From: Gloeobacterales cyanobacterium
GTDB lineage: Bacteria > Cyanobacteriota > Cyanobacteriia > Gloeobacterales > PMM-0068
Assembly: GCA_038245785.1 (NCBI GenBank)
Contig: JBBRSB010000001.1
Span: 320,001-384,000, forward strand
Direction: 5' to 3'
Length of the DNA: 64,000 nt
Numbering within the stretch: position 1 is the first letter of the stretch; every line of letters begins with the position of its first letter. The position numbers were made by a program. Below, one piece after another: positions 36,001 to 39,000 of this stretch.

Positions 36001-39000
36001 TTTGCCGTGGGGACGCTATGCCTTAATCACATTAGGGCTCAGCTTTTTAGCCTTGGTCGTGCTGTTTCCGCTGTTCAATATTCTCTATCAGGCCTTTCAA
36101 GGAGGCTTGGGAGCCTATTGGCAGGGAATTTCAAACCCAGAAGCTCTCAGTGCCATTTCCCTCACACTGTTAGTGGTGCTGATCGTCGTTCCGGTCAATA
36201 CCATTTTTGGTGTCTTGGTTGCCTGGGTGCTCGCCCGTTATCAGTTTCCCGGCAAGCTCTTCTTCCTCGGAATCTTGGACCTTCCCTTTGCTATCTCGCC
36301 CGTAGTGGCAGGGATGATGCATGTGATTCTCTACAGCCCAACTAAAGGGATTCTGGGTCCTTGGCTAGAGTCCTTGCATATCAGAATTTTGTTTGCTCCC
36401 CTGGGCGTAATCTTGGTTACTTTATTCGTCACGCTGCCTTTTGTGGCCCGTGAAGTCTTGCCCGTCCTTCAAGAATTGGGTGATGAAGAAGAGCAAGCGG
36501 CAGCCACCTTGGGCGCCAGTCCCTGGGAAACTTTTTGGTATGTGACCTTGCCCAATATCCGTTGGGCGCTCCTCTATGGGGTTATCCTGTGCACAGCGCG
36601 GGCTTTAGGAGAATTTGGAGCCGTTTCTGTAGTCTCCGGTAAATTGATCAACCAAACAGAAACGCTCACTTTGCATATTGAGCAGGCCTATGGTGAATAC
36701 CAAACCGTAGCTGCCTTTGCCTGCGCTTCTCTCTTAACCCTGTTGGCCGTAGTTACCCTAGTGGTTCAAGAGCTGATCAAGAGCAAACAGCCTTCTTTAG
36801 AAGCAGAAGAATAATCCGTCAGCAGAGTTCGTAGGAGCCTGAAGCCATGGGAATCACAGTCCAAAACGTCAGTAAACAGTTCGGCAATTTTCAAGCGGTT
36901 GACCACGTTTCGCTAGAAGTGGAAGCAGGCTCCTTGGTAGCCCTCCTCGGCCCTAGTGGTTCAGGAAAGTCCACCTTGCTACGTTTGATTGCCGGGCTAG
37001 AATCGCCTGACTCTGGCAAAATCTTTCTCACTGGAGAAGATGCCACCACCCGTACGGTACAAGAACGGAACATTGGTTTTGTCTTTCAGCATTACGCCCT
37101 GTTCAAGCATTTGACGGTAGCAGAGAATATTGGCTTTGGCCTGAAACTCCGCAAAGCGGATCAAACTACTATCAAAAAACGGGTGGATGAACTCTTAGAG
37201 CTGGTCCAATTGGCAGGACTGGCCAAGCGCTATCCCAATCAACTTTCTGGCGGCCAACGCCAACGGGTTGCCCTGGCTCGGGCCTTAGCCGTAGAACCGA
37301 CGGTACTGCTCCTGGATGAACCCTTTGGAGCCCTGGATGCCAAGGTGCGCAAAGATCTCAGAGCATGGCTACGCCGTCTGCATGATGAAGTGCATGTGAC
37401 TTCGGTATTCGTTACCCATGACCAAGAAGAAGCCCTAGAGGTGGCCGACAAAATCGTAGTCATGAATAAGGGCAAGATTGAACAAATCGGCTCCGCTCAG
37501 GAGATCTATGACCATCCAAAAACGCCCTTTGTCATGGGCTTTATTGGTCCGGTGAATGTAGTCCCTTCCGATTCGCCCTTAGTGAAATCGATGAATCCTA
37601 ATGGTCAAGATCTGTTTATCCGGCCCCATGACATAGAACTCCTGGCTAACCCTACCGAAGGGGCAAGCGGATTCACGATCCGACGGATAACGCATTTGGG
37701 CTGGGAAGTCCAGGTGGAATTGACCTCTGGCTACGACCATTCGATCACCGCCCATCTCAATAGAGATGACTTTGACCGACTGAATCCCCAAGTCGGCCAG
37801 CAAGTTTTTGTTCGAACGAAAGACGCCAAGTCTTTTGTTGCAGATTATTCGATTTAGGGATAATGGGGCCAGAAACAGGCTACAGGGGCCGAACGGAGAC
37901 GTCACATTCACATATCTTTACCGTTTCCTCTGTTATTGCACTAGCTACAGCAGGTAAGATGCACTCCTAGAAGGGGTTGTATCTCTACTCCAAGATTCTA
38001 ATTGCTATATGTCCTTTCTGTTTTATTGCCGGTAAAGGAAGAAAACATGACCAAAACCTTAAATCGTTGGCTAGTGGGCTTGACAGCTGGTGTCCTGTGC
38101 CTCACGGCCAACTCAACAGCTTTTGCCCAATCGGTGCCTCAAGAGTTAGCCAGTACGGCTAAGGACGCCTGCGTTGATGCAGCCAAGGCAAAGGGATTTC
38201 GACTGAAGAAGGTGGTGTCTGTTGCCCCTAAGGCTGATGGCGCAACGGTGATTTTAAGTCTGGATCGCGCTAAACAACTGTTCAAGCTCACCTGTGGGTA
38301 CACAAAGTCCGCTGGAGCTGTGATTGGGGGAGAAAAATCTAATGCTTCCGCTGCCACTCCTTCTCCTGCGCCTGCGGCTGCGGCTGAATCATCTGCGACC
38401 AAACCTGCCCCTCCCTCGCCTGAATCTGCTCCTGCGCCTGCAGCCGCTGCTGCCGCTGCTCCAACGGCTGCAGGGACTCAGCCCACTTTCGGTTCTGCAG
38501 CCCCCTGTAAGAATGTCCCTGCTTTCCAAGAGAAGAAGACGGCTGCACTGGCTGCGGTGGACGAACAGATTGCCAAAGCTACTATCGCTGCCGTTCCCAC
38601 CTTCACGATTATTCCAGGAGTCACGGGTAGCCAATCTCTGAAGCAGGAGTGGGAAACCAAAAAAGCTTCGTTAGCAGACAAGTTTGCCCGTTATGAAAAG
38701 CCTGGTGTCCTTTGTGGCGTGGATGATGGCAATCCTCGCTTGATTGCAGATGGTCGCTGGAACCATGCTGGGGACTTCATTATTCCTAGCATCCTGTTCC
38801 TCTATGTCGCTGGAGCGCTGGGCTGGGCTGGACGAGATTACCTGGGCAAGGCCAAGGGAGATGCCAATCTAGAAATTATGATTGATATCCCCATGGCGTT
38901 ACAGTCTCTTCTTGCTGGCTTGCTATGGCCTATCCAGGCTATTCCTCAATTGATTTCGGGCTCTATCCGAAATGACACTGTCAAACCTTAATCCGGAGTC

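Follow-up and report, generated by a model that had tools for sequence, protein, structure and literature searches.

A folded head domain on a stalk behind the signal peptide of photosystem I subunit PsaF in a Gloeobacterales cyanobacterium

The subunit architecture of photosystem I (PSI) is considered all but frozen. A recent structural study of Gloeobacterales PSI reports, in the part cited here, no evidence that novel subunits were recruited, and singletons containing large insertions were taken out there before the phylogenies (PMC11565984). The psaF gene described here encodes a PsaF with an additional folded domain, which raises the question of where this module comes from and what it might do on PSI. 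Full-text literature searches returned no description of a long PsaF; the supplements of papers, which lay outside the search, might list long sequences. New here are the source family of the module, its exact insertion point, the long and short forms, the purifying selection on the head and its shift in charge. The gene lies in a 64,000-nt stretch of DNA, referred to as the window (contig JBBRSB010000001.1, positions 320,001-384,000; GCA_038245785.1), and all feature coordinates are given as window positions.

Layout of the psaF locus and identity of its product

The psaF frame runs uninterrupted from the ATG at 38047 to the stop codon at 38989-38991 (Table 1). A domain-extended PsaF of 314 aa had been proposed in the initial annotation, and this was confirmed: the product is encoded in a single frame, the fusion is conserved, and one psaF match only was found in the genome to which the window belongs (G000, 98% complete). 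An alternative in-frame start, TTG at 38002, would extend the product to 329 aa and leave the downstream part unaffected. The layout of the protein also stood as first described, with slightly shifted boundaries that give a domain of 68 aa and a linker of 49 aa. The signal peptide was assigned by sequence reading together with alignments, and is homologous to that of the short PsaF encoded in the sister genome G013.

Table 1. Features of the psaF-psaJ locus in window positions
Feature	Position	Strand	Description
psaF CDS	38047..38991	+	314 aa plus stop; sole psaF found in the genome
Shine-Dalgarno-like AAGGAAG	38035..38041	+	5 nt upstream of the ATG; putative, by sequence reading
Signal peptide, Sec-type, residues 1-27	38047..38127	+	n-region MTKTLNR, hydrophobic core, AFA followed by Q
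Head domain, residues 28-95, 68 aa	38128..38331	+	helix and four-stranded antiparallel sheet; C42 and C83 invariant; net charge +6
Linker, residues 96-145	38332..38481	+	Ala/Pro-rich, low-complexity; length and sequence vary among orthologues
Canonical PsaF, residues 146-314	38482..38988	+	lumenal/periplasmic part (C154, C223), then membrane part and C-terminus
psaJ, 36 aa	39008..39118	+	16 nt downstream of psaF; matches solved PsaJ chain 9e0j_R, E 2.9e-5

The Pfam score, the similarity to solved chains and the pairing with psaJ all identify the product as PsaF. The PSI_PsaF family (PF02507) matched with 126.2 bits against a cut-off of 27, on residues 140-308 only, as had been noted before; no Pfam family, a wall-binding domain included, matched residues 1-154 at E≤10. 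Among the PsaF chains of solved PSI, 82 were matched (9e0j_P, E 2.1e-35; 7f4v_aF, E 7.5e-33), the alignment starting at residue 147 (9e0j_P, 177 aa) or 206 (7f4v_aF, 181 aa). The protein shares with canonical cyanobacterial PsaF a cleavable N-terminal signal peptide, a PC...C pair, the membrane part and an adjoining psaJ, but differs by about 117 extra residues (folded head and stalk), which separate the signal peptide from the N-terminus of the mature part. As no other psaF was found in the genome, the long PsaF is predicted to be built into PSI as its subunit, which we consider likely.

The gene order ABC-ATPase/psaF/psaJ/HU-like is common to the window genome and the two genomes G012 and G013. 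Two contigs from RNA libraries of one study (1133 and 1155 nt) map to 37969-39100 with approximately 93% identity and cover the head, the linker, PsaF and psaJ. A scan of 37850-39250 for consensus promoters and terminators returned none of either.

Distribution of the long and short forms

An order-wide search with the window PsaF gave matches in 13 of the 14 Gloeobacterales genomes; G002 (93% complete) had none. Residues 1-140 were matched in G000 and G012 only, which reproduces the earlier result, and in G013 and ten other genomes the match begins at residues 145-206. Outside the genus, no Gloeobacterales genome of the 11 showed the extra module: ten match from residues 145-206 and G002 has no match. 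In a search of 5.8e9 proteins with the head, nine proteins had been found; eight are PsaF fusions, and the ninth, at 49% identity, has a different C-terminus. This count was reproduced but is an underestimate, as 27 clusters with the domain and 17 long-form clusters were found. The latter, retrieved with the PsaF of the sister genome as query, are 299-331 aa in length, come from JGI, NCBI, ENA and Logan, and are independent of each other, free of frameshifts and stops. Contigs from other runs cross the module junctions, and the linker measures from 25 to 51 aa across 18 long forms.

The short form is represented by two clusters (G013 and one more; 201 and 208 aa) with an identical junction. 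In the sister species G013 the same signal peptide is joined straight to mature PsaF, with SYAQ-EAPKPTFGS at the junction vs. AFAQ-(head and linker)-TQPTFGS in the window. The phylogeny of flanking genes suggests that the short form arose by secondary deletion in the sister species. In a PsaF-only tree of 20 close sequences and three outgroups, from which P0007 was left out for its aberrant C-terminus, the two short forms nest among the long forms and not together, with supports of 12-63; supports this weak do not allow the deletion to be dated, and we therefore relied on the flanking-gene tree. Since G013 and one further cluster manage without the head, the domain can be dispensed with, at least under some conditions.

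Source, fold and divergence of the head domain

The source of the head is a rare family of membrane proteins in cyanobacteria. In an exhaustive search of 1.84e9 representatives with residues 25-100, 27 clusters were found at E≤1e-3, 26 of which are not PsaF. These free heads match the window head with E down to 7.8e-16 and 37-60% identity (33-58% to the 73-aa query in alignment A2). The family is built of a signal peptide, the two-Cys head, a low-complexity stalk, a TM helix and a cytoplasmic SH3b domain, with SH3_3 behind a conserved TM helix (WWLLLPLxGLPLLL) in 24 of 25 aligned members; examples are P0012, P0013 and a paralogue in G012 (L017:568-1269). Both in this family and in the window the homologous head stands right behind the AxA-Q signal site and leads into a stalk of low complexity, but in the fusion PsaF takes the place of the TM helix and SH3b, with no SH3 match. 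By sequence, the window PsaF is thus a protein that shares a domain with this family and not a full member of it.

A phylum sample of 301 genomes places the family in other cyanobacterial families as well; one member occurs in Leptolyngbya sp. JSC-1. The neighbours of six free-family loci (GNAT, glycogen phosphorylase, HypD, Mur ligase, TPR) include none that recurs and do not point to a ligand. Among PDB sequences, the free-family profile matched SH3b domains only, with none for the head. In the ESM Atlas the head query (named clusters only) reached a best score of 0.77, which is uninformative, and the G012 paralogue retrieved its own cyanobacterial cluster (0.93) along with SH3 clusters. Residues invariant in the head family are C42, A46, G50, L70 and C83; as these comprise hydrophobic-core residues and the two Cys only, the pattern is more in keeping with a binding module than with an enzyme.

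The helix and four-stranded fold described earlier was reproduced from a 31-row alignment (pLDDT 83.3, helix at residues 32-48). Structural comparison of the predicted head gave Z≥5 for 88 of 48,161 chains, and the top match was a designed protein of cystatin fold (VIA Z 9.1); natural cystatins scored Z 6.4-7.4, and the PepSY-bearing chains 2gu3, 4exr and 7atk scored 6.9, 6.8 and 6.1. In the predicted head, as in cystatin, monellin and PepSY folds, a helix packs against an antiparallel sheet of four strands, but the head has no significant sequence or Foldseek match (none at E≤0.001; best E 0.12) and no inhibitory motif. No PepSY match (PF03413, PF13670) was obtained on the window head at E≤10, and PepSY_2 matched weakly, below the cut-off, in 4 of 25 free-family members (best E 0.029). 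The first hairpin of cystatins carries the motif QxVxG, which is absent from the hairpins of the head (PKADGA and DRAKQ). The label 'cystatin/PepSY-like' in the initial annotation therefore holds as a description of a generic, common fold predicted for the head, and not as demonstrated homology.

The head is under purifying selection and the linker evolves freely. In a comparison of the window with two G012 contigs only, the head has dN/dS of 0.147 (68 codons) and 0.154 (44 codons), values that are approximate as its dS of 1.6-1.7 is near saturation; the PsaF part has dN/dS of 0.117-0.12, and the linker dN of 0.52-0.57. A search of metagenome contigs with P0001 for more DNA returned one distant PsaF (36% identity) only. 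After the fusion the head also changed in charge: the net charge of 18 fused heads is +1 to +6 (mean +4.3) vs. -8 to +4 (mean -1.0) for 27 free heads, a shift that is effectively one lineage event, as fused heads are close kin, so that the Mann-Whitney p overstates it. A hairpin Gly that is near-invariant in the family is replaced by K or Q in the fused A2 rows (P0003, P0006, P0009 and the window), and VEPK has become V(A/T)PK.

A possible role on the periplasmic face of photosystem I

Our preferred reading, tentative and with a little less than even confidence, is that the inserted module remains on PsaF and serves as a binding head, tethered by its stalk on PSI's periplasmic face. psaF is a domain-insertion allele, in which a head from a rare bitopic membrane-protein family entered, together with a stalk, in frame exactly behind the signal-peptidase site. 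Because the only export signal is N-terminal, head and stalk would cross the cytoplasmic membrane along with the N-terminal donor-side part of PsaF; this topology, with PsaF's own signal peptide as the only route, also upholds the earlier placement of the module in the periplasm. The head would probably stay attached to mature PsaF, with a putative C42-C83 disulfide for stability, and would act as a binding head on an Ala/Pro stalk of 25-51 residues, PSI serving as the anchor in place of the parent family's TM helix and SH3b. The idea of a tether is borne out to the extent that the head hangs on a variable, stalk-like linker. If the head is retained, its ligand would quite probably be an envelope or other non-donor component of the periplasm, for instance the wall or the outer layers; PSI would thereby be positioned or restrained within the cytoplasmic membrane.

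A comparable role has been proposed for PsaB of G. violaceus, whose 155-aa C-terminal extension is reported, in the part of the study cited here, to be translated and suggested to anchor PSI to peptidoglycan, and is invisible in the solved structure (PMC11565984). As the extension was not seen there, the precedent is itself functionally unproven. Both are added periplasmic extensions on a PSI subunit of a thylakoid-less cyanobacterium, but the two differ in subunit, end and domain type, with no sequence relation seen by Pfam, and the PsaF module is like the OmpA-like/peptidoglycan-binding extension by position only. PsaB of the window genome ends 8 residues past the Pfam profile, without such an extension. 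It is rather unlikely, on our estimate, that PSI is coupled via the stalked head of PsaF to a periplasmic or envelope structure, as a second independent invention of the role proposed for Gloeobacter PsaB.

The head and linker might instead be cut off after export, as a pro-domain or an aid to assembly or export, leaving mature PSI with an ordinary PsaF. We regard this as unlikely. Ala/Pro low-complexity linkers are exposed and a frequent target of cleavage, the short allele functions with no such module, and the comparable PsaB extension is unseen in the structure; yet no hydrophobic stretch precedes the linker-PsaF junction, which argues against a second signal peptidase I site, and a head as constrained as PsaF, with a charge shift after the fusion, is more than a disposable leader needs, an argument tempered by the fact that pro-domains can be conserved too. 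That the module is a functionless, tolerated passenger, or results from faulty assembly or gene calling, is very improbable. Its confinement to one genus and loss in one lineage would suit a passenger, but the head stays constant while the linker varies, with dN/dS near 0.15 at high synonymous divergence, and the artefact reading is already contradicted by the independent assemblies, in which 17 clusters from four sources lack stops and frameshifts and other runs span the junctions.

As to what a retained head would bind, the initial annotation had considered docking or retention on the donor side; the soluble electron donor would then be plastocyanin or a c-type cytochrome. Eukaryotic PsaF has a lysine-rich N-terminal extension, which binds acidic donors and forms a short helical addition inside the PsaF fold, and the fused head resembles it as additional basic sequence (lysine-rich, pI 9.7) in the donor-side N-terminal part of PsaF. 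The window head differs as a separate domain with an inferred disulfide on a long stalk, facing basic donors: the plastocyanins of the genome, a mature soluble form (net +5, pI 9.41) and the plastocyanin domain of a lipoprotein form (net +5, pI 9.45), would bring like charges together. One of them is already equipped with a lipid anchor and stalk, nothing links the parent family to electron carriers, and the head on its 49-residue stalk is distant from P700; donor docking thus appears improbable. Still less do we expect a protease inhibitor or regulator of PepSY or cystatin type, acting as a shield for PSI on its exposed periplasmic side. The cystatins and PepSY-bearing chains among the structural neighbours and the weak PepSY_2 matches point that way, but they are set against a common fold, an empty Foldseek search at E≤0.001, no match at the Pfam cut-off and hairpins that both lack QxVxG. 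The initial proposal that the module evolved because PSI faces the periplasm is also weakened, as the head family occurs in other cyanobacterial families and a sister species apparently deleted the head.

Across a genus-level clade the sole PsaF carries an added folded domain whose donor family can be traced and whose insertion point is exact, with purifying selection and divergence after the fusion, and the natural long and short alleles in sister species form a ready-made comparison. The locus offers a handle on how photosystems cope with an open periplasm, and on the role of an unstudied family of cyanobacterial membrane proteins. If PSI is indeed coupled to the envelope, photosystems in the cytoplasmic membrane would need or profit from envelope anchoring, the head-stalk-TM-SH3b family would be a trans-membrane tether, and its periplasmic ligand could be found with PSI as the handle.

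Structure and occurrence of the long-form psaF

The psaF gene of the window has AAGGAAG 5 nt ahead of its ATG; an alternative in-frame TTG start at 38002, used in some public gene calls, adds 15 residues and alters nothing downstream. The C-terminal half of the product is an ordinary PsaF. The Pfam PSI_PsaF profile matches residues 140–308 only (126.2 bits vs. a cut-off of 27) and solved PsaF chains match this half only (9e0j_P on 147–314, 7f4v_aF on 206–308). No Pfam family was found on residues 1–154, even at E ≤ 10. A protein query of the window genome, which is 98% complete, located a single psaF place, and therefore photosystem I (PSI) there must use the product of this gene. 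At window positions 38756–38761 the protein reads DGRWNHAGDF vs. DGRLDHAGDF in 19 of 19 close relatives, a difference produced by two 1-nt indels that compensate each other when the window is compared with contigs of other runs. Since RWSH occupies the matching place in two genomes of another Gloeobacterales family, RWNH may be genuine and not an error of assembly.

Features of the psaF region and related loci of the window genome
Feature	Position	Strand	Description
psaF	38047-38991	+	single open frame, 314 codons
signal peptide	PsaF residues 1-27		predicted by sequence reading, Sec-type: MTKTLNR, hydrophobic core, AFA then Q
head	PsaF residues 28-95		compact domain
linker	PsaF residues 96-145		63% Ala+Pro
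PsaF proper	PsaF residues 146-314
psaJ	39008-39118	+	36 aa; 16 bases 3' of psaF; matches solved PsaJ chain 9e0j_R, E 2.9e-5
inverted repeat	39149-39176		perfect 12 bp, GCCCCCTAGAGA / TCTCTAGGGGGC, loop TTAA; between psaJ and convergent HU-like gene
HU-like gene	39197-39487	-	converges on psaJ
plastocyanin/cytochrome locus L045	C32:35532-35825
plastocyanin/cytochrome locus L046	C51:9843-10109
plastocyanin/cytochrome locus L048	C20:2892-3101

The fusion of head and PsaF is real. The initial annotation had described a long PsaF with an extra N-terminal domain, and had counted eight PsaF fusions among nine database proteins with that domain; the repeat search returned the same count, and the single frame, the synteny of a sister genome and a wider set of relatives confirm and extend the description. 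A search with the PsaF of the sister genome G013 gave 17 long-form clusters of 299–331 aa from JGI, NCBI, ENA and Logan, in each of which a single frame encodes signal peptide, head, linker and PsaF, together with two clusters of short forms (201 and 208 aa) and a single distant PsaF. The long form also occurs in the second sister genome, G012, with the gene neighbours of the window (ABC-ATPase upstream, psaJ and the HU-like gene downstream); the G012 assembly is broken within the linker, where its two contigs differ. Outside the genus the head module was found in none of 11 Gloeobacterales genomes; ten had a PsaF match beginning at residues 145–206 and one had no match. In the frames read from these other Gloeobacterales, PsaF begins 8–12 residues past the signal site.

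The psaJ frame was missed by both the Pfam and the NCBIfam profiles and is also present in G012 and G013; according to PMC10438808, PsaJ seems to be missing from metagenome-assembled genomes of this genus. In one microbial-mat study, two RNA-library contigs of 1155 and 1133 letters, each with 80 differences, lie on 37969–39100; they come from a relative with about 93% identity and span its head, linker, PsaF and psaJ. In a second study, two contigs of a single run cover this interval. Presence in such libraries is no proof of transcription. Contigs from three RNA-library runs of two studies all start at 37969, 78 nt 5' of the ATG, and one DNA run extends upstream; this hints weakly at a 5' end of a psaF-psaJ transcript. 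A consensus scan gave no sigma-70-like promoter at psaF. The inverted repeat has A7 (39142–39148) directly 5' and TTTG directly 3' on the + strand, and looks like a terminator shared by psaJ and the HU-like gene, stronger for the minus strand; it was absent from the terminator-scan output.

Relatives and fold of the head

When 1.84e9 cluster representatives were searched exhaustively with HMMER, using residues 25–100 as the query, 27 proteins matched at E ≤ 1e-3. One was a PsaF fusion; the other 26 are mostly 210–260 aa long with the domain at residues ~25–100. In their common layout, a signal peptide with the ending AxA-Q precedes the head; a stretch rich in Thr, Pro and Ala, whose length varies greatly, then leads to a conserved transmembrane helix, WWLLLPLxGLPLLL, with Arg/Lys behind it, and a bacterial SH3 domain forms the C-terminus (24 of the 25 members aligned have SH3_3, and PDB SH3b chains match too). 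By the positive-inside rule, the SH3b end would be cytoplasmic and the head periplasmic or lumenal. The head of PsaF is a domain relative of this unnamed cyanobacterial family. The family is rare: the head part of its profile matched six of 301 genomes in a phylum sample (the psaF of the window genome, three full-length proteins and two partial ones), the remaining matches covering the SH3 part only, and one member occurs in Leptolyngbya sp. JSC-1. The only non-PsaF copy in the order is a 233-aa paralogue in G012 (L017:568-1269, G012:C329) with head, stalk, transmembrane helix and SH3b; none was found in the window genome or G013. This paralogue shares no more than 48% identity with the fused head, below the best free relatives elsewhere (P0012, 60%; 58% to the 73-aa query in the family alignment A2), and is therefore probably not the direct donor.

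The AlphaFold2 model of the head (31-row alignment; pLDDT 83.3, pTM 0.65) consists of a helix (32–48) and four strands (52–62, 65–74, 77–86 and 90–98), numbered as in the protein. The label 'cystatin/PepSY-like' proposed initially proved fair as a description of shape but unsupported as homology. Foldseek gave no match to the PDB at E ≤ 0.001, its best matches (E 0.12–0.3) being RnlA, monellins and a designed cystatin fold, and Pfam PepSY_2 was touched by four of 25 free relatives with a best E of 0.029. In VIA-align (48,161 chains), in which a best Z of 7–8 is typical of models without true relatives, that designed cystatin fold came top with Z 9.1, followed by natural cystatins (Z 6.4–7.4) and PepSY-bearing chains (2gu3, 6.9; 4exr, 6.8; 7atk, 6.1); copper amine oxidase N-domains, VirB8-like and NTF2-like proteins also matched, and 88 chains had Z of at least 5.

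Insertion and subsequent change

In G013, with the same synteny, PsaF has 201 aa, and a signal peptide homologous to that of the window, MIKTSNRWLVALTASALCLMATTASYAQ, is followed immediately by EAPKPTFGSTAPC; in the window, head and linker separate AFAQ from TQPTFGSAAPC. This puts the module precisely at the N-terminus of mature PsaF and makes the signal peptide PsaF's own and not the donor's. The two proteins encoded beside psaF, a PBP2-like protein and the ABC-ATPase (908 columns free of gaps, with three outgroups), gave the tree (G000,(G012,G013)), G000 being the window genome, with a bootstrap of 86, identities of 96.2% vs. 92.3%, and 11 derived states common to G012 and G013 vs. three and two for the alternatives. 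As G000 and G012 have the long form and G013 the short one, the simplest history is one gain of the head before the genus radiated, then an in-frame deletion in the G013 lineage. We consider this rather likely, and go no higher because its basis is two genes in three genomes. Both short clusters have an identical junction; the PsaF-only tree places short forms among long ones, with poor support.

Divergence between the window and G012 (Nei-Gojobori)
Segment	Codons	dN	dS	dN/dS
head	68	0.245	1.67	0.147
head, second G012 contig	44	0.241	1.57	0.154
PsaF part	169	0.100	0.83	0.12
linker	33-39	0.52-0.57	saturated	not reliable
signal peptide	27	0.261	0.59	0.44

Constraint on the head is about equal to that on PsaF, with protein-level change about 2.5 times faster in the head. 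The linker keeps only its character (25–51 residues, 40–81% Ala+Pro). It occurs in two sequence types, one of pure Ala/Pro and one with EEVHTNVIKSSDVQAQGAG, scattered across PsaF sub-clades; this scatter and the two differing G012 versions suggest strain heterogeneity or recombination in the linker (window 38332–38481 and orthologues). C42, A46, G50, L70 and C83 are invariant across the head family and the near-invariant positions are mostly hydrophobic or small, a pattern that reads as a scaffold with a disulfide, not an enzyme. Fused heads carry a net charge of +1 to +6 (mean +4.3, n = 18) vs. −8 to +4 in free heads (mean −1.0, n = 27), a shift to be counted as one lineage event and not 18 independent ones, as the fused sequences are close kin. 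VEPK of free heads is V(A/T)PK in fused ones, and at the hairpin position where free heads almost always have Gly, the fused rows of A2 have K or Q. The head changed after fusion.

Possible role on photosystem I

The window PsaF has no export signal apart from the N-terminal one, and therefore the head must cross the membrane along with PsaF's donor-side N-terminus. In the parent family a membrane anchor would hold the head out on a stalk; in psaF, PSI would be the anchor instead, and we read the head as a binding module that probably stays attached over PSI's periplasmic face. The proposal of a tethered periplasmic accessory of PSI is partly supported. Its donor-docking version is weakened, as the head is basic (pI 9.7) and both plastocyanins are basic too: the mature soluble form has net +5 and pI 9.41, and the copper domain of the lipoprotein-type form net +5 and pI 9.45. 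A basic head on an Ala/Pro stalk, which we estimate at up to ~15 nm if extended, would be consistent with contact to the wall or to some other anionic layer of the envelope. Envelope contact has likewise been proposed, in PMC11565984, for the 155 aa by which Gloeobacter PsaB is extended at its C-terminus, an extension that the PsaB of the window genome lacks. The main rival to a tethered head is its cleavage after export; the natural short allele of G013 type shows that PSI is able to do without the module.

The lipoprotein-type plastocyanin has a LIAC lipobox and a 35-residue Ala/Pro/Thr/Glu stalk ahead of the copper domain, which makes it a membrane-tethered donor, and the only clear PF13442 cytochrome of this genome, with an N-terminal hydrophobic anchor, looks membrane-anchored, a further point against donor docking by the head. 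Tethered periplasmic electron-transfer parts may be a theme of this organism.

No PSI subunit architecture of this kind, with head and linker between signal peptide and PsaF, is known to us, and we regard it as new. Full-text searches of the literature on PsaF, Gloeobacterales and Sivonenia, with passages of PMC11565984, PMC10438808 and bioRxiv 10.1101/2021.09.29.462462, gave no mention of a domain-extended PsaF. The function given here is putative, but the long-form PsaF is of real interest for specialists in PSI and in early cyanobacteria.
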